Counted from the first letter of the stretch, positions 2,226 through 58,832 are shown. The stretch is DNA of 64,000 nt from a virus (IMGVR_UViG_3300021399_000100); one strand, 5' to 3'. Made by a program: numbers and translations. Notes: generated by a model not told the origin, from the letters alone.

Positions 2226-3143
2226 ATGGCAAAGAAAGAAACAAAACAGATCAAGTTGCCTAAGGTCAAGAATATCAGGCCTTCTAAGGCGCCTCAGCTG
2301 TCAACAAAAGCAATGGAGGAATCCTTACTGAGTGTAGGAAACGTAAAAGAGAACTTTCCTAAAATCGAAGCTCTTCTTTTTAAGTTAACTGGAATAGCTC
2401 CGTCAGAAAACACTATTGATGCGAGACTGCGATGCGCATTCACATCAGCGAACGCAAAATCCGTTACGAAAGTAACTCCAAGCACGTTGAGCACAATACG
2501 ACAGCTTATCGAAGCGAAGTTTAATCTAGTAATGTGCTATCCTATGGACTTGCTAGCAAAACATATTGATGAGCTCAGTGATGAGGAGTATGCATCAATA
2601 TATACTAAAGAAGACGCCAATAATGTCGAAGGCGTCATCAGAACCAGCTCTATTGCCAGTTTAGAAGCATTCCGTGCGTACGGTGTATTCACTAAAGAAG
2701 GCAAGAAATGGCCAGATTACTATGATGCAGAATATACCATGTGTGGTATGGCTGACGAATTGGTTGAATTTGCTGCTGCTACAGAAGAAGAGAAGTCTCA
2801 CGAACTAGGCGACGTTCTATGGTACTTTATGGCTATCGTAGCATTTTGGGATGCAACTGATGAAGACATCAACACCATCATTGAGGCTGGGAAGAATGCT
2901 GACAGCAACAACGAATACGACTATACCAAAGCATTCCATAAGTTCGTTAAACTTATGAGAGACGAACCTCATCTTATCGGAGATTTCTCTGTGATCACTC
3001 CAATGATGGCAGATGTATTCTGTACCCTTATCAAATATGCCGGAGGCATCGATAAGCTTTCTGAGGTTGCCCTTGAGAACATTGCAAAGATCCGAGACAG
3101 GATTGCACGCGGTGTTGTGAGAGGTAGTGGAGACAATCGTTAA
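2226..3143 (+). CDS. mazG: MazG-like nucleoside triphosphate pyrophosphohydrolase with N-terminal extension
   Basis: ELGDVLWY motif; C-terminal NIAKIRDRIARGVVRGSGDNR is typical of phage MazG. Confidence 0.8.
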   Translation: MAKKETKQIKLPKVKNIRPSKAPQLSTKAMEESLLSVGNVKENFPKIEALLFKLTGIAPSENTIDARLRCAFTSANAKSVTKVTPSTLSTIRQLIEAKFNLVMCYPMDLLAKHIDELSDEEYASIYTKEDANNVEGVIRTSSIASLEAFRAYGVFTKEGKKWPDYYDAEYTMCGMADELVEFAAATEEEKSHELGDVLWYFMAIVAFWDATDEDINTIIEAGKNADSNNEYDYTKAFHKFVKLMRDEPHLIGDFSVITPMMADVFCTLIKYAGGIDKLSEVALENIAKIRDRIARGVVRGSGDNR

Positions 3144-4207: not shown

Positions 4208-4657
4208 GTTTACATATAGAAATAGAGAATGCTACAAATTTTGCAAGAAAGTCATAAAAAATATGAACTACAACGAAAATATTTATAATTTTATGGCAGA
4301 AAACATGCAGATAGTTTGTTATGCAGATGTAAATATATTATTAATATCAGTACATCAATGAGAAAATATTTTACATATAATGTGTTCAACATGAGCTCCT
4401 TTGGATTTCATGCGAATTTCGCTACTACAGCCAATCCGCAAAGAGCATCTATGACATCATGAGCGCTACTGAATTAAAGATGATATACGCATTAATATAA
4501 AAAGGTAGCACATAATACGCTACCTTTTGTTTTGTATAGGGGAATATTTTCAGAAATCGGATGATTATATAATTGAACGTAATAAGATAGTTCATGATAA
4601 TCATCATGGTTCTGTTACGACGCCTTTTTAGCTCAGCTGGTAGAGCACGTGATTTGT

Positions 4658-5124
4658 TAAACAGATTCCGTACAATGTCATTGCTTATGGAAAAGAAACA
4701 AAAAGGTAATTTAGTTGAGTTGCAGTGCATCACTGCATTTTATGAATTAGGTTATCAAGTCAGCATTCCATACGGTGAAAATTCCAGGTATGATTTTGTA
4801 GCGGACATAGACAACAGACTTATAAGAGTTCAAGTCAAAGCATCTCATGAAGTTGATGAAAACTCTTTTCGATTCAGTTGTCAATCTGTTAAATCGAAAA
4901 GATCTGGGATTTCCAGACGTAAGTATACGAAAGATGAAATTGACTTTTTTTCAACTTTCTATAATGGTAAATGTTACTTGGTGCCAGTCGAAGAATGTTC
5001 AATATATAAAACACTTCGGACATCGGAGAGTAAAAATAACCAAATGCAAAACATAAATTTTGCAGATAGTTACGAGCTAGAAAAACAGATTGATAAAATT
5101 AAAAACCCGGAACATTGATTAACA
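4658..5124 (+). mobile_element. endonuclease-encoding tRNA intron/insert lacking an evident self-splicing core
   Basis: Lies between tRNA positions 36 and 37; terminal pairings GATTTGTTAA/TTAACAAATC and TTCCG/CGGAA; ORF fills nearly the whole element. Confidence 0.8.
4687..5118 (+). CDS. PD-(D/E)XK homing endonuclease, I-Ssp6803I/PDDEXK_5-like
   Basis: KQKGNLVELQCITAFYELGYQVSIPYGENSRYDFVADIDNRLIRVQVKA matches the family pattern (KG...P.G....YD........VQVK); Y...EIDFF motif; start ATG 4687 or 4675. Confidence 0.9.
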   Translation: MEKKQKGNLVELQCITAFYELGYQVSIPYGENSRYDFVADIDNRLIRVQVKASHEVDENSFRFSCQSVKSKRSGISRRKYTKDEIDFFSTFYNGKCYLVPVEECSIYKTLRTSESKNNQMQNINFADSYELEKQIDKIKNPEH

Positions 5125-5200
5125 AATCTCGGGGTCGTTGGTTCGAGTCCAACAAGAGGCTCATAAGAAATATAGATCTTTGACATGTTAAATTATATAT

Positions 5201-5272
5201 AGTCCTTTCGTATAGCGGCTAGTACACAAGATTTTGATTCTTGGAGGAGGCGTTCGAATCGCTTAGGGACTA
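5201..5272 (+). tRNA. tRNA-Gln(TTG)
   Basis: Cloverleaf; CAAGA-TT TTG AT-TCTTG. Confidence 0.9.
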
Positions 5273-5287
5273 CAAAATAAATTATAT

Positions 5288-5359
5288 AGTCCTTTCGTAT
5301 AGCGGCTAGTACACAAGATTCTGACTCTTGGAGGAGGCGTTCGAATCGCTTAGGGACTA
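5288..5359 (+). tRNA. tRNA-Gln(CTG)
   Basis: Same as the preceding tRNA except loop TT CTG AC. Confidence 0.9.
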
Positions 5360-5374
5360 CAAAACAATAATGTA

Positions 5375-5449
5375 TGCGGGGTGGACTGGAGTAGGTTCCA
5401 GCTTGGTCTCATAAGCCATATAACGTGGGTTCGAATCCCACCCCCGCCA
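5375..5449 (+). tRNA. tRNA-Met(CAT), initiator-like
   Basis: CT CAT AA loop; 1:72 mismatch; T arm GTGGG-TTCGAAT-CCCAC. Confidence 0.8.
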
Positions 5450-5537
5450 CAATGATTCAGGGGGCGTGTCACATTGCTGTAGACACCATAATATAAATCC
5501 TGGAGGTTTGGAGATTTTACCATAAAATCTCCATAAT

Positions 5538-5957: not shown

Positions 5958-6041
5958 GGATTGTTAGTTCAGTCGGTTAGAACGCATGCATCACACACAC
6001 AAAACATGCATGAGACACGGGTTCAAACCCCGTACTTTCCT
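5958..6041 (+). ncRNA. tRNA-like RNA with an Asp-like body and an 18-nt CA-repeat anticodon loop (pseudo-tRNA or decoy)
   Basis: D arm GTTC-AGTCGGTTA-GAAC, stem CATGC/GCATG, T arm ACGGG-TTCAAAC-CCCGT; loop ATCACACACACAAAACAT; two acceptor-stem mismatches. Confidence 0.7.
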
Positions 6042-8727: not shown

Positions 8728-8807
8728 ATGGCGTTAGACAAATTGGTAAAGTCACACCCTTTATTCTAGGTTGGGTGAATTTGAAGGTTCGAATCCTTCA
8801 CGCCGTA
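8728..8807 (+). ncRNA. tRNA-like RNA with a 13-nt anticodon loop (identity undetermined)
   Basis: ATGGCGT/ACGCCGT acceptor, GAC/GTC D stem, CACCC-TTTATTCTAGGTT-GGGTG, GAAGG-TTCGAAT-CCTTC. Confidence 0.7.
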
Positions 8808-9070: not shown

Positions 9071-9217
9071 AGCGAAGTAGCTCAATAGGTAGAGCACAGT
9101 AATTCATATACGGGAAGATTGCCGTTCGAACATCGCGCGCGAAGTAGTTCAACGCCATTCAGCGAGAGCACCGTATCCATATAACTGAAGATGACAGTTC
9201 GAATCTGTTCTTCGCGC
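9071..9217 (+). ncRNA. tandem tRNA-like units with cross-complementary anticodon arms
   Basis: Two GCGAAG-TA-GYTC...GAGC-A starts and two TTCGAA loops; CAGT(9097)/ACTG(9184) and ATACGG(9108)/CCGTAT(9171) pair between units. Confidence 0.7.
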
Positions 9218-11998: not shown

Positions 11999-12086
11999 TT
12001 AGCAAATATATAGATGCAGCCATGTTCCTATGCAGCCTGCATCTATATTTGTAAATATACTATTAATAACAATTGATTATGCTCAC

Positions 12087-12752
12087 ATGAATATATTGCA
12101 CTTTAAGGAATGGCTTTATGTCCACGGTGGTTATAGACATACGCCCAAAACTAAAGAAGAACTATTGGATGCCATTGAAATCGAAATAAAGAAGCAAGGT
12201 CCTCATGCAAACTTAGGGTATATTGATGTATCAAATGTGACAGACATGAGCGAATTATTTATGAATAGAGAATCATTCGATTGTGATATTTCAAACTGGA
12301 ATACGTCAAAAGTAAAAGACATGTCCAGGATGTTCGCTAATACTAAGAACATAAAGGTGGATCTGTCAAGTTGGAACGTTTCTTCTGTCAAACATATGGA
12401 TGGTATGTTTGAACGCAGCGATTTCACCGGTGATTTACATAGCTGGAATGTCTCTAATGTTGTCAGCATGAGAGGAATGTTCATGTATTCTAAATTCAAT
12501 AGCAATATTTCGGATTGGGATACTTATAATGTAAAAGACATGGCCATGATGTTCATGTGTAGTGATTTCAATCGAGATATACACTGTTGGTGTATATCAA
12601 ATGTAAGAGACATGACCCGAATGTTCTACGGAGCGCATTCATTTGTTCACGATATCAGTAACTGGAATCTGAGTAAGGTCACTAATAAAGATGAGATGTT
12701 CGATGACAGTGAATATATTCGACAGCAGATAAAGATGCCATACGAAATATAA
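12087..12752 (+). CDS. DUF285/BspA-like surface-repeat protein
   Basis: Repeated IS.W.TS.V.DMS.MF units; IDVSNVTDMSELF. Confidence 0.9.
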   Translation: MNILHFKEWLYVHGGYRHTPKTKEELLDAIEIEIKKQGPHANLGYIDVSNVTDMSELFMNRESFDCDISNWNTSKVKDMSRMFANTKNIKVDLSSWNVSSVKHMDGMFERSDFTGDLHSWNVSNVVSMRGMFMYSKFNSNISDWDTYNVKDMAMMFMCSDFNRDIHCWCISNVRDMTRMFYGAHSFVHDISNWNLSKVTNKDEMFDDSEYIRQQIKMPYEI

Positions 12753-26372: not shown

Positions 26373-27692
26373 TTAGTCGAATCTACCTGTCTTGTCGTAC
26401 AAGAACACTTTGATAGGGAATCTCATGCTTTTCTCACCCTTATCATTAGTTGTCTCTTCAAAGTATTTAACTTTAAGGACTCTACCAATGAGTTGTTCTG
26501 GCTCTGATGCATAATTCTTGCGCTCATCTAAAGACCATCCAGACCCTACCGAACAAGTGTATCCCTTGTAGTATACTTCAACAGAGGCTAGTACATTATG
26601 AAGGACGGTGTTCTTGTAACGGAAATCACCTAATGTGTAACCTGTAATGGTAAACTCACCATCTTCGAAAGATTTGATTTTCAACAAGTTATCAGTCCGC
26701 TTACCTTCCCATGAAACATCCTTACGGATCATCAGGCCTTCCCAGCCAGCATCCTCTGCCTTGTTGAACTCTTCCATGAGCATGTCTTCATCAACCACCT
26801 TCTTTTGGTCAACAATAATAACATTGTCTCCTAAAACCTCTTTATTGCGATTGAAGAACTCTTGGAGTGTTTTATATCTTTCAGAGAATATAGCACTAGT
26901 CTCTTCACCATATGCGACCTCTAGTGAATACATATCGAATACCATCATAACTGGGTCAGGGATAGTGTAATCCTTTCTCTTGACTTGGGATACGATAGAT
27001 TTGAAATCATCGTGATCCAAGCCACTTTTGGTTATGACTTCTCCATCTAAGACGAAATCGCCAGGGATTTGTTGGAATATATTTTTGAGGACTTCTAGAG
27101 TAGTGAACTCTTTACCCGTACGGGAAAGGGTCAGTACCTTGTCGCTCTGCTTAATTATATTTAATCGGCAGCCGTCCAATTTGCGAGACATGTACCAGTC
27201 GTCCTTTTCGAAGTTGACCTTCTTCTTTTTGTTAAAATATGAGTTTGCTAAAGATACCCCAAGTGTCTTGTTAGTCTTGACACATGCCTTATATGTAGCA
27301 GAAGATACTCCACATTTCAGATCCTTGTCCAAGATGCATTCTAGTACTTCTGCTGCACCTTTGCTAAGAGCTTCGTGATATGTTTTCAGCAAATCCTTTT
27401 TCTGAGAAGCACTGATGCTTTGTATCTGCAAAGTGGCTAACGCAGCAGATACCTCTATGTCACTTACAGAGGATTCCTTATTATCAGTACGGGAAGAGGC
27501 TGGATGCTCAAAGATTTTAGAGGTCAGGGAGAACTTCTCAGAATTGAATATCATATCGAGAACAGTCATGACTGCCTTGTTATCTTTGTACATGCTGACA
27601 AATTCACGGAGCTTAGCCTTTTTATTGTTCGCGGAGTTATCCTCAAGCAGATCCTGTCGCAATGAGGCTACAATGTCTAATTGGTTTTCCAT
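26373..27692 (-). CDS. lig: ATP-dependent DNA ligase
   Basis: KLDG (motif I), LDGE, FD, WEGLMIR, LLKIK, VGSG, RFP. Confidence 0.95.
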   Translation of the reverse strand: MENQLDIVASLRQDLLEDNSANNKKAKLREFVSMYKDNKAVMTVLDMIFNSEKFSLTSKIFEHPASSRTDNKESSVSDIEVSAALATLQIQSISASQKKDLLKTYHEALSKGAAEVLECILDKDLKCGVSSATYKACVKTNKTLGVSLANSYFNKKKKVNFEKDDWYMSRKLDGCRLNIIKQSDKVLTLSRTGKEFTTLEVLKNIFQQIPGDFVLDGEVITKSGLDHDDFKSIVSQVKRKDYTIPDPVMMVFDMYSLEVAYGEETSAIFSERYKTLQEFFNRNKEVLGDNVIIVDQKKVVDEDMLMEEFNKAEDAGWEGLMIRKDVSWEGKRTDNLLKIKSFEDGEFTITGYTLGDFRYKNTVLHNVLASVEVYYKGYTCSVGSGWSLDERKNYASEPEQLIGRVLKVKYFEETTNDKGEKSMRFPIKVFLYDKTGRFD

Positions 27693-56332: not shown

Positions 56333-56944
56333 ATGAAAACATTTGATCAATGGATTGAAAATCCTGCCCAGAATATTGATGAAGGGACATTTGGTTTCTT
56401 GAATAATAAAAATGCAGATCGAAATTCGCATAGCATCACAGAGTTTAAGCAAACTCCCATAGTTCAACCTAAGAATAAAGAAGAACTGGAGAAGATTATT
56501 AACGATACCATCAAAGCGAAAGGCTCTAATTGTGATCTAAATTTCATCGATACGTCTCTGATAACCGATATGAGTAGGTTATTTATGGGGTCTGATTTTA
56601 ATGGGATCATCTCCAAGTGGGACGTCTCTAATGTCACGGATATGAGTGGTATGTTCGAAGAATCAAGTTTCGAGGGGGACCTCGCTGAATGGGATGTATC
56701 TAATGTTAAAGATATGAGTGAAATGTTCTATGAAGCGTATGGCTTCAATAGTGACATTGCTAATTGGAATGTCTCTAATGTAATATATATGCAATATATG
56801 TTCGCAGAATCCGGATTTAACCGTAACATTTCAAAGTGGAATGTGTCTAAGAATGCATTTGTGTATATGATGTTTGATCGCACATATCTTGAGGAAAATG
56901 GTACCCTTCCTAACTGGTATAAGTACCATCCTAATAAAAATTAG
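56333..56944 (+). CDS. DUF285/BspA-like repeat protein, paralog 1
   Basis: [14 protein letters not shown]; WDVSNV.DM..MF repeats. Confidence 0.9.
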   Translation: MKTFDQWIENPAQNIDEGTFGFLNNKNADRNSHSITEFKQTPIVQPKNKEELEKIINDTIKAKGSNCDLNFIDTSLITDMSRLFMGSDFNGIISKWDVSNVTDMSGMFEESSFEGDLAEWDVSNVKDMSEMFYEAYGFNSDIANWNVSNVIYMQYMFAESGFNRNISKWNVSKNAFVYMMFDRTYLEENGTLPNWYKYHPNKN

Positions 56945-56968
56945 ATTTATATGATAATAATTAAGAAT

Positions 56969-57919
56969 ATGAAGACATTTGATCAGTGGATTGAAAATCC
57001 TGCCCAGAATATTGATGAAGGAGTATTTGGTTTCTTGAATAATAAAAATGCAGATCGAAATTCGCATAGCATCACAGAGTTTAGGCAGACTCCCATAGTT
57101 CAACCTAAGAATAAAGAAGAACTGAAGAAGATTATTAACGATACTATCAAAGAAAAAGGTGATCATTGCGATCTAAATTTCATAGATACGTCTCTGATAA
57201 CTGATATGAGTGAGTTATTTCAGAGGTCTTCTTTTGATGGGAATATCTCTAAGTGGGATACATCGAATGTGCAAAATATGAGTCATATGTTTCAGAGGTC
57301 TTCTTTTAATGGGGTTATCTCTGATTGGGATACATCAAATGTACAAGATATGAGTTATATGTTTAATGTGTCCAAATTCAATGGGGTCATCTCTGATTGG
57401 AATACATCGAATGTGCGAGATATGAGCGGAATGTTTATGGTATCTGAATTCAATGGGGTTATCTCTGATTGGGATACATCGAATGTACAAGATATGCATG
57501 AGATGTTTTGTGGGTCTGTTTTTGATGGGGTTATCTCTGATTGGAATACATCAAATGTGCGAGATATGAGTAGCATGTTCGCTGAATCTGATTTTGAAGG
57601 AGACCTCTCTAGGTGGAATACATCTAATGTTGAGAATATGAAAGGAATGTTTTGGTCCTCTATGTTCAATAGCGACCTCGCAAAATGGAATGTCTCTAAG
57701 GTAAGAGATATGGGATTTATGTTCTCCGAATCTGAATTCAATAGTGACATCCATGAATGGGATGTCTCTAATGTAAGAAACATGGAGGAAATGTTCTATC
57801 GCTCTTGGTTCAATAAAGACATCTCAGATTGGGAGGTATCTGATGATGTATGTATGCGCAATATGTTTAAGGATTCAAAACTTGAGGAAAATGATGCCAT
57901 CCCTGAGTGGTATTATTAA
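56969..57919 (+). CDS. DUF285/BspA-like repeat protein, paralog 2
   Basis: About ten 22-aa (66-nt) repeats F.GVISDW.TSNV.DMS.MF. Confidence 0.9.
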
Positions 57920-57947
57920 ATTTATTTATATAATAATAATTGAGAAT

Positions 57948-58832
57948 ATGAAGACATTTGATCAATGGGTTGAAAATCCTGTCCAGAATATTGATGAAGG
58001 AGTATTTGACTTCTTTAAAAAGAAGAAGACGAATAATAGTGCACCTGTGATTAAAGCAAAAGACAGAGAACATCTAGAGAAGCTTATCAATAATGCTATC
58101 CATCCTGCAGGAGGAAGGATCAATTATGAAGCGGATCTTAACTTTATCGATGTCAGCAATATCACAGACATGTCTGAACTCTTCCAAAATTCAGAGTTCA
58201 ACGGCAGCATTTCTGAATGGAATACGTCCAACGTGGTGAATATGGACAAAATGTTCATGAATTCCAAATTTAACAAGGACATCTCTAAGTGGAACACTCG
58301 CAAGGTGCAGTCCATGAACAAGATGTTCGAGTCCTCTAAATTTAACAAGAACATTTCTAAATGGGACGTCGGTAGAGTTACTTCAATGAATTATATGTTC
58401 CGTAATGCTGCATTTGATGGAGACCTGTCTGAATGGAGACCTGTAAATCTCAGTGAAGCAAACGGAATGTTCCAAAACAGCAAGGTAGACTGTGATTTAT
58501 CAAAATGGCCGCTTAAAAATCTTACAACCGCAAGATATATGTTTGCTAATACTACATCGAAGTGGAAAGGAATAGGCAACTGGCCTATCAATAAAATAGA
58601 AGACACTACTTCTATGTTCGCAAGGGCTGTTAAGTTCGATGATGACATCACTAACTGGAACATGTCAAACATACGGGCTTGTTCGAGAATGTTTGATTCA
58701 GCTGAAAAATTCTCCCAGAATCTTTCTACGTGGAAGGAACCTATAGAAAAACCGTCAATTGGAGACAGAATACAAATGTTCAAAGGCTGTCCGAAGATGA
58801 AGCCTAATATGATGCCTAAATGGGCTAAGTAA
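57948..58832 (+). CDS. DUF285/BspA-like repeat protein, paralog 3
   Basis: Same leader and repeat type, more diverged. Confidence 0.9.

Follow-up and report, generated by a model that had tools for sequence, protein, structure and literature searches.

The viral sequence IMGVR_UViG_3300021399_000100 is a stretch of 64,000 nucleotides (nt) from a rumen phage (the window). It carries a transfer RNA (tRNA) gene, tRNA-Thr(UGU), at positions 4622-5161 that is split directly after the anticodon, between nt 36 and 37, by a 467-nt insert with the gene of a putative homing endonuclease. When the coordinates were checked on the sequence, the split gene read as a class I tRNA with the insert in its anticodon loop. 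Its parts are as follows.

4622 to 4657, plus strand: exon 1 of tRNA-Thr(UGU), nt 1-36, from the sequence and from ARAGORN with introns allowed; equal to the 5' part of the intact tRNA-Thr in the sister viral contig L311
4658 to 5124, plus strand: mobile 467-nt insert, absent in L311 and without a ribozyme match
4675 to 5118, plus strand: open reading frame (ORF) P0001 of a PD-(D/E)XK homing endonuclease, 147 amino acids (aa), by Pfam PF11645, phrog_5018 and PDB 2OST
5125 to 5161, plus strand: exon 2 of tRNA-Thr, nt 37-73, from the sequence; equal to the 3' part of the intact L311 tRNA

Exon 1 supplies the 5' half of the acceptor stem, the D arm, the 5' half of the anticodon stem and, at its 3' end (...GATTTGT), TT-TGT. 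Exon 2 starts with AATCTCG. It contributes AA to the anticodon loop, then the 3' half of the anticodon stem, a variable loop of 5 nt, the T arm and the 3' half of the acceptor stem. Depending on whether the first ATG or a second possible one at 4687 is used, 17 or 29 nt separate the 5' junction from the start of the nuclease ORF, and 6 nt follow its stop. Outside the ORF, only 23 nt of the insert are noncoding, and its last base is A. Default ARAGORN and the Rfam tRNA model both missed the split gene; ARAGORN recovered it, with a 467-nt intron, when introns were permitted. Four splice registers each yield a 7-nt anticodon loop, with TGT, TGA, TCA or ACA as the anticodon, and the choice of ARAGORN was TGA. 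The register 36/37 and the identity Thr(UGU) were settled by L311, because this empty-site allele joins 4657 straight to 5125. A first-pass annotation of the window had placed the junction at 36/37, giving TT-TGT-AA, with 17-29 nt before the ATG, 6 nt after the stop and a final A; the intact allele fixes the former, and the latter distances are all correct on the sequence. A U29-U41 mismatch is present in the anticodon stem. Since the intact L311 tRNA shows the same exons, this mismatch is native to this tRNA family and not a sign of decay. No second Thr tRNA was called in the window by ARAGORN or Rfam, as had also been noted in the first pass.

We then compared the locus with alleles lacking the insert. 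Between about 2000 and 9000, L311 matches the window at 96-99% identity and is without exactly the 467 nt; its tRNA-Thr(TGT), called by ARAGORN, equals exon 1 plus exon 2 at 73/73 positions. The insert is therefore a mobile piece of DNA. Among cultured phages, Enterococcus phage EFP01 has the closest homologue (46% identity), and its insert is placed between T36 and A37 of tRNA-Asn(GTT). The 29 other records matching the EFP01 locus, all of them Enterococcus phages (Schiekvirus relatives), cover only about 60% of the query, and an uninterrupted tRNA-Asn was present in those of the 29 that were examined (H44-H53). A presence/absence polymorphism of the homing type, at a precise site in near-identical genomes, was thus found both with L311 and among the EFP01 relatives. 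A tRNA-Thr with two differences from the window exons was very abundant in rumen DNA and RNA (runs X4, X15, X16 and X18, depth up to about 4300) and also occurred in 38 large viral contigs. The target sequence of the nuclease is therefore very common in the rumen habitat.

A second presence/absence difference between the window phage and L311 concerns a tRNA-Gln copy. The window has tandem, near-identical tRNA-Gln genes (TTG and CTG) at 5201-5360, and L311 has the TTG copy only, at 5247-5319. One RNA-library contig likewise skips 83 nt in the tRNA-Gln region.

The product of the ORF was examined for its family. P0001 is a full-length member of PF11645 (PDDEXK_5, the I-Ssp6803I family; E value of 2.5e-28, 99.3 bits versus a cut-off of 26.1), also matches phrog_5018, and aligns with I-Ssp6803I (PDB 2OST; E value of 4e-7) through the active-site motif YD..D...VQVK. 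The catalytic motif residues E15, D40, Q53 and K55 are invariant in 39 homologues, and more than 436 protein homologues were found. The assignment to the I-Ssp6803I family made in the first pass was thus borne out. The accompanying statement that this family typically sits in group I introns fared less well: it rests on one studied case, and phage relatives are often free-standing between tRNA genes, as in Pectobacterium phage My1 and Vibrio phage phi-pp2. The Jug-phage paper recorded 80 PDDEXK_5 genes as stand-alone (PMC12880540).

To place the insert among its relatives, we collected 48 viral and 80 metagenomic loci. Among 132 ORF copies with flanks, 104 were resolved automatically inside a split tRNA, with inserts of 454-490 nt; the unresolved copies were mostly at contig ends or had unusual T loops. 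Relatives stand at the identical 36/37 position in Thr, Asn, Met, Lys, Ile and Ser tRNAs, the cultured EFP01 included. The anticodons of the interrupted tRNAs are TGT (the majority), AGT, GTT, CAT, TTT, GAT and GCT, every one of which ends in T. With about 100 relatives at 36/37, membership of the insert in a class of mobile elements in phages, as first proposed, is supported. One complete phage genome of 190 kilobases (kb), G004, has four interrupted tRNAs, namely, Met, Thr and both Lys(UUU) genes. In its region 121438-131887 (contig of L043), there are five PF11645 genes, four of them within tRNAs; the fifth, at 126835-127212, lies outside any split tRNA callable by ARAGORN. Our literature searches gave no account of endonuclease inserts without a ribozyme in the tRNAs of phages. 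The survey of Williams 2020 demanded a group I match and could not detect these inserts for that reason.

The two ends of the insert are complementary to each other and to the anticodon region, and can form a rod of two helices, P1 and P2, with these strands.

4648 to 4664, plus strand: 5' strand of P1, 17 positions (stem nt 27-31, loop nt 32-33, anticodon nt 34-36, insert +1 to +7)
5115 to 5131, plus strand: 3' strand of P1 (insert -10 to -1, then nt 37-43)
4665 to 4670, plus strand: unpaired A (+8), then the 5' strand of P2, TTCCG (4666-4670), from a cofold of the two ends
5108 to 5114, plus strand: 3' strand of P2, CGGAA (5108-5112), in the last ORF codons, then unpaired CA

Within P1, GATTTGTTAA (4651-4660) and TTAACAAATC (5119-5128) are perfect reverse complements, and the last three insert bases, ACA, pair with the anticodon TGT. 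Mismatches occur in P1 only at 29/41 (U-U) and +4/-7 (A-A). Both this perfect 10-nt pairing and the second helix, TTCCG with CGGAA, had been claimed in the first pass, and both are exact on the sequence. The 5' strand of P2 occupies the place of a ribosome-binding site for the ATG at 4675, and the stop codon of the ORF, TGA (5116-5118), is inside P1. The terminal inverted repeat was the top-ranked repeat, with 21 nt and 81% complementarity. In a global fold of the 540-nt precursor, the rod was not in the minimum-energy structure (z = -3.67); when the two ends were folded alone, it was recovered. As in inserts of the type excised by ribonuclease (RNase) III, there are terminal repeats and a stem of about 20 base pairs (bp) that extends a native helix, here with 17 positions in P1 and at least 5 bp in P2.

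At each resolved locus, the strand running from nt 27 into the insert pairs, in a single unbroken register, with the strand running back from nt 43. According to an analysis of 72 distinct rods, pairing at nt 34, 35 and 36 was 94%, 97% and 100%, respectively (97% for the anticodon triplet overall), and positions 33-37, 34-36 and +1 were paired in 94-100%. Pairing at +1 to +7 was 71-100% by position and 88% overall, and it fell to 10% at +8 and 7% at +9. With shuffled partners, the pairing at +1 to +7 had a mean of 66% and a maximum of 71% in 1000 shuffles, versus the 88% observed, and slid registers gave 19-42%. The rod pairing is therefore far above chance at the family level. The final insert triplet tracks the anticodon, being ACA, ATA or ACT for TGT, ATT for AGT, AGC or AAC for GTT, ATG for CAT and AAA for TTT. 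These results support the masking of the anticodon by the insert, as first proposed.

The variable columns of the rod show three to five standard pair types each, and G-U pairs are common: G35 is opposite U in 17 rods, and AGC lies opposite GTT across the Asn group. The inserts closest in protein sequence, three in number (84%, 76% and 66% identity), are in different tRNA-Thr genes, and their rods are preserved by compensating changes, including U-A to A-U at +1/-4, G-U to A-U at +7/-10, and extra P2 pairs (L370 and L372). The many G-U pairs, together with the compensatory changes, argue for selection at the RNA rather than the DNA level. In the Thr group, the internal loop after P1 has A opposite CA, within the conserved motifs CAAA and CATTG, and CATTG (5113-5117 in the window) ends exactly 7 nt before the 3' junction in the whole group. 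Across the family, the distance from the 5' junction to the start is mostly 17-30 nt, and that from the stop to the 3' junction is 6-14 nt.

We next considered whether the insert could be removed by a ribozyme. No intron or self-cleaving ribozyme, group I, group II and small ribozymes included, was matched in Rfam at an E value of 10 or below between 4300 and 5500, and this held for the group I core (RF00028) too. Likewise, no ribozyme reached the Rfam gathering score within the inserts of 20 related loci. As a positive control, an ORF-less group I intron was found in a neighboring tRNA of locus L019 (61.5 bits), so the group I model works in these phages. A group II intron would require an RNA several hundred nt long with six domains, domain V among them, for which there was no Rfam match, and just 23 nt are noncoding. 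To look for an RNA core hidden in the ORF, 64 sequences sharing less than 90% of their nucleotides were aligned by codon. Synonymous-codon identity, as observed over expected, was flat along the ORF (0.85-1.17) and was raised only at the first codons beside P2 (1.49).

The control intron, at 335-648 of L019, sits in a tRNA that ARAGORN read as having a TTA anticodon (ochre suppressor type). G004 has an uninterrupted tRNA with a TTA anticodon.

The junctions themselves point the same way as the ribozyme searches. A group I intron has a P3-P9 core, a 5' U and an omega-G. Here U36 is present, the core was not found, and the last insert base is A, C, G or T, whichever pairs with nt 34, so it is set by pairing and is not an omega-G. 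Nor do the junctions form a bulge-helix-bulge, as both lie within a perfect 10-bp helix, 3 bp apart, so that cuts at both would produce 3-nt 3' overhangs. The absence of a ribozyme is therefore well supported, and the first-pass view that there is no ribozyme core and that the geometry fits neither group I nor bulge-helix-bulge introns agrees with these data. A cryptic small ribozyme, a self-splicing RNA made of the rod of about 50 nt alone, or a group I core concealed in the ORF could still be imagined, given that the 5' exon ends in U, as with group I introns, and that the rods have a few group-conserved bases (CAAA and CATTG in Thr; TTGAC and GCTGATG in Asn). However, the conserved loop bases differ among the Thr, Asn, Lys and Met groups, which argues against a shared catalytic core. 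Together with the negative Rfam searches, the variable last base and the unconstrained synonymous sites, this makes a ribozyme very improbable. The Asn-group loop (GCTGATG opposite TTGAC) was also inspected by eye as a hammerhead, kink-turn or C/D-like motif, and none of these readings was established.

We tentatively favor, at a little less than an even chance, the interpretation that the insert is an unspliced, selfish homing-endonuclease cassette whose rod serves its own RNA. Such a cassette, without a ribozyme, would have inserted at the cut site of its own enzyme, at nt 36/37 of the phage tRNA-Thr(UGU) gene. In a mixed infection, the PD-(D/E)XK enzyme would cut the uninterrupted tRNA gene of a related phage, and repair would copy the cassette in; the carrier would be protected because the insertion destroys the target. 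This DNA homing step is well supported, and cleavage by the enzyme itself is predicted. In the transcript, the ends of the cassette would pair with each other and with the anticodon, which lengthens the anticodon stem to the 17-position P1, followed by the internal loop and P2. P2 and the end of P1 would bury the nucleotides immediately before the start codon, and the rod would also hold the stop codon. Translation and the folded rod would therefore be mutually exclusive, and the nuclease may be translated from the nascent transcript as long as the 3' strand has not yet been made, after which synthesis would be shut off. In addition, the continuous helix of about 22 bp resembles the substrate of a double-strand RNase such as RNase III, and cutting by such an enzyme, with no rejoining, would account for the selected pairing of nt 34-36. 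The most likely role of the rod is thus in the cassette's own RNA, where it may limit nuclease synthesis and direct the processing or stability of the transcript; the geometry of the rod suggests both the translational control and the RNase III step. The interrupted tRNA copy would not be restored, or only inefficiently, a cost that would be tolerable because phage tRNAs duplicate those of the host.

Several observations weigh against this interpretation. For the interrupted tRNAs Thr(UGU), Lys(UUU) and Asn(GUU), no intact copy was found in G002, G003, G004, EFP01 or the window; the exception is the interrupted Met(CAU) of G004, which is accompanied by two intact CAU tRNAs. The exons are undecayed, with 0.47 stem mismatches versus 1.12 in neighboring tRNAs, a comparison that is biased because the filter required a good acceptor stem. 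Pairing with the anticodon is better kept than pairing within the insert, and helicity at the junctions would be needed for cutting there, whereas translational control would not need it. Furthermore, P2 begins at +9 in the Thr, Asn, Lys and Ile groups despite wholly different sequences, and this constant spacing from junction to P2 suggests a measuring enzyme.

These same observations speak for a rival explanation, a protein-dependent mobile tRNA intron. According to this alternative, a nuclease cuts both strands at the rod junctions and an RNA ligase reseals the exons into a working tRNA-Thr. The junctions would lie 3 bp apart across the minor groove, and the cuts would leave the 3-nt 3' overhangs mentioned above. 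One candidate cutter is the cassette's PD-(D/E)XK enzyme, with P1 copying the left half and the center of its DNA target; I-Ssp6803I probably leaves a 3-nt 3' DNA overhang at the intron insertion site, a stagger equal to that of the two RNA junctions. The other is a host enzyme that measures from helix discontinuities. By geometric analogy, RNase P or RNase Z might cut at the helix ends, as each junction is 5' of a 7-pair helix. The layout is constant and close to two-fold symmetric, with 7 pairs, 3 pairs between the cuts and 7 pairs, and a discontinuity at each end; the junction pairing, the best-conserved part of the rod, is adapted to each anticodon; many of the intact exons encode CCA; and, G004 Met(CAU) excepted, the interrupted gene is the sole isoacceptor copy in the five sequences named above. 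However, we know of no bacterial or phage enzyme that makes 3-nt staggered cuts in both strands of an RNA helix, PD-(D/E)XK homing enzymes act on DNA, and RtcB would be unable to join the ends left by a metal-dependent cut. If P1 were a symmetric mimic of the target, its intron half should follow the tRNA half-site of the same locus; no co-variation was found, the observed value being equal to the permuted one.

We therefore examined RNA data for a spliced product. The joined sequence ...GATTTGT/AATC... was present in short, very deep contigs of three rumen metatranscriptomes, and it also stood in a DNA run. These contigs differ from exon 2 of the window at two letters (GAGTCCAAC in this phage versus GAATCCGAC in the common variant), and at both they agree with the most common intact tRNA-Thr found in other large phages. 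The joined contigs were thus rejected as evidence of splicing, since their exon 2 and their occurrence in a DNA run indicate another, intact tRNA gene, and no spliced product of the window gene was seen. One RNA-library contig of 741 nt runs from exon 1 across the insert into the beginning of exon 2. Its depth is low, the same as that of the rest of the phage, and it may represent precursor RNA or contaminating DNA.

Relics and ligases were also searched for. Inserts consisting of the rod without an ORF were not found by ARAGORN in 2.8 megabases (Mb) of tRNA-rich phage DNA, and in a pattern scan of viral contigs, none lay inside a tRNA among the matches listed (at least 117). Such relics are expected from a benign, host-spliced intron, as group I introns leave them. 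Two readings are consistent with their absence: the insert is not spliced, or its splicing depends on the protein that the cassette encodes. RNA ligases are patchy in carriers: RtcB was found only in EFP01 (E value of 9e-60), PF09414 was above the cut-off only in G003, and G001 had none. The RtcB of EFP01 and the RNA ligase of G003 would suit protein splicing, but ligases are not universal in carriers. Among 30 ORFs of the window scanned with Pfam, no RtcB or RNA ligase was found, only an ATP-dependent DNA ligase at 26373-27692. We consider the cut-and-reseal mechanism possible at clearly less than an even chance. The first-pass annotation had proposed a protein-spliced mobile tRNA intron class: the mobile class in phages stands, and the protein cutting and rejoining is still a hypothesis, in view of the foreign joined contigs, the missing ORF-less descendants and the inconsistent ligases. 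That bacterial viruses widely carry ribozyme-less mobile tRNA introns, removed by protein, possibly by their own restriction-fold enzyme acting on an RNA copy of its target, and resealed by a ligase, seems to us rather unlikely.

The acceptor, D and T arms are retained across about 70 distinct examples. This pattern would also be expected if the split gene were kept as a tRNA-shaped RNA. Such an RNA could be a stable nuclease messenger with a tRNA cap, its ends trimmed by RNase P and 3' processing enzymes, or a decoy with its anticodon concealed, able to resist or absorb the anticodon nucleases of the host. The same cluster has genes altered solely in the anticodon arm (5958-6041, 8728-8807 and 9071-9217), which would fit such a role. 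However, processing of neighboring tRNAs would free the messenger anyway, and a decoy leaves unexplained why hits are limited to anticodons ending in U, which the target choice of the nuclease explains. We found no defense or counter-defense context. We therefore regard a tRNA-shaped RNA as improbable, and keep the selfish, unspliced cassette as our tentative preference.

Several tRNAs near the split gene or in related phages have unusual anticodon arms of other kinds. At 5958-6041, there is a tRNA-like gene (49 bits in Rfam, missed by default ARAGORN) with an 8-bp anticodon stem and a 14-nt CA-rich loop; its anticodon loop has 11 extra nt, too short for a rod. The gene at 8728-8807 has a 13-nt anticodon loop and was called Asn(att), 81 nt, by ARAGORN, with 9 extra loop bases in the Rfam alignment. 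A tRNA match of 147 nt at 9071-9217 has an 85-nt insert in its anticodon arm that resembles parts of a second tRNA. The gene at 5375-5450 was reported by ARAGORN as '???' (2-base anticodon), and its loop in the Rfam tRNA alignment is a normal CUCAUAA; it is therefore a CAU tRNA (Met or Ile2 type). In related phages, anticodon-loop inserts of about 60-70 nt with no ORF and no group I match occur in tRNAs at 1273-1415 of L049 and 401-533 of L024. These short inserts, which are of a different kind, have CACCATT as their last bases, directly followed by AA, and their pairing with the anticodon lies further upstream.

Other features lie farther from the subject. In EFP01 (L001), a full-length ROOL RNA (264.8 bits in Rfam) is located at 2442-3028, about 0.5 kb downstream of the interrupted tRNA-Asn and in the tRNA cluster. 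The window also has four DUF285 (BspA-like repeat) genes, at 12030-12752 and 56333-58832, of which three are consecutive; such an expansion is unusual in a phage.

The prevailing view is that homing-endonuclease genes persist within other genes only where a self-splicing intron or an intein carries them. The resolved inserts, about 100 in six kinds of tRNA, with more than 400 homologous proteins in metagenomes and one cultured Enterococcus phage, form a large family inside tRNA genes without a self-splicing vehicle, yet with an anticodon-pairing helix. If they are spliced, they would represent an undescribed protein-based tRNA splicing in bacteria or phages, possibly by an RNA-acting enzyme of the restriction fold, and the first protein-only tRNA splicing known outside archaea and eukaryotes. 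If they are not, phages tolerate repeated tRNA loss (four in one genome), and the rod would be a new form of self-regulation by a selfish gene. The tRNA repertoires of phages are under-counted because standard tRNA finders miss split genes. EFP01 and its intron-free relatives, such as phiSHEF16 and vB_Edu_21C1, provide a ready laboratory system for the splicing question.

Among known systems, the group I intron in the tRNA-fMet gene of Synechocystis PCC 6803, the source of I-Ssp6803I, has 655 nt and a 150-aa ORF (PMC1995217). It shares with the window insert the nuclease family and catalytic motif, a site in the anticodon loop of a tRNA reading an A-starting codon, and mobility by homing. However, the Synechocystis intron leaves about 200 nt for a self-splicing core, whereas the window insert has only the 23 nt outside its ORF, gives no group I match and has no omega-G, and the pairing partner of the 5' exon is the insert's 3' end, not an internal guide.

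In archaea, bulge-helix-bulge introns are spliced by EndA and RtcB, and some encode a homing endonuclease; they also have no ribozyme and pair with the anticodon region. Their junctions, like those described here, are in approximate two-fold symmetry, and proteins would do any splicing of the window insert as well. In contrast to them, the insert has neither the 3-nt bulges nor the 4-bp central helix, and its site is 36/37, not 37/38. To our knowledge, bacteria, the hosts here, do not have EndA.

The intervening sequences of bacterial 23S ribosomal RNA (rRNA), some of which carry an ORF, are excised by RNase III and not rejoined. They resemble the insert in having an end stem that extends a native helix and no ribozyme, and a host double-strand RNase is a plausible cutter in both cases. 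RNase III, though, could not make the exact 36/37 junction because it leaves 2-nt overhangs, and rRNA functions in pieces, whereas a tRNA nicked in its anticodon loop does not.

Finally, T4 segB is a free-standing homing-endonuclease gene in a tRNA cluster. The free-standing PF11645 genes of My1 and phi-pp2 are akin to P0001 in enzyme family, in their neighborhood of tRNA clusters and in selfish spread between related phages. The difference is that those genes leave the tRNAs whole, whereas the window nuclease lies inside a tRNA, with a rod that pairs with its anticodon.

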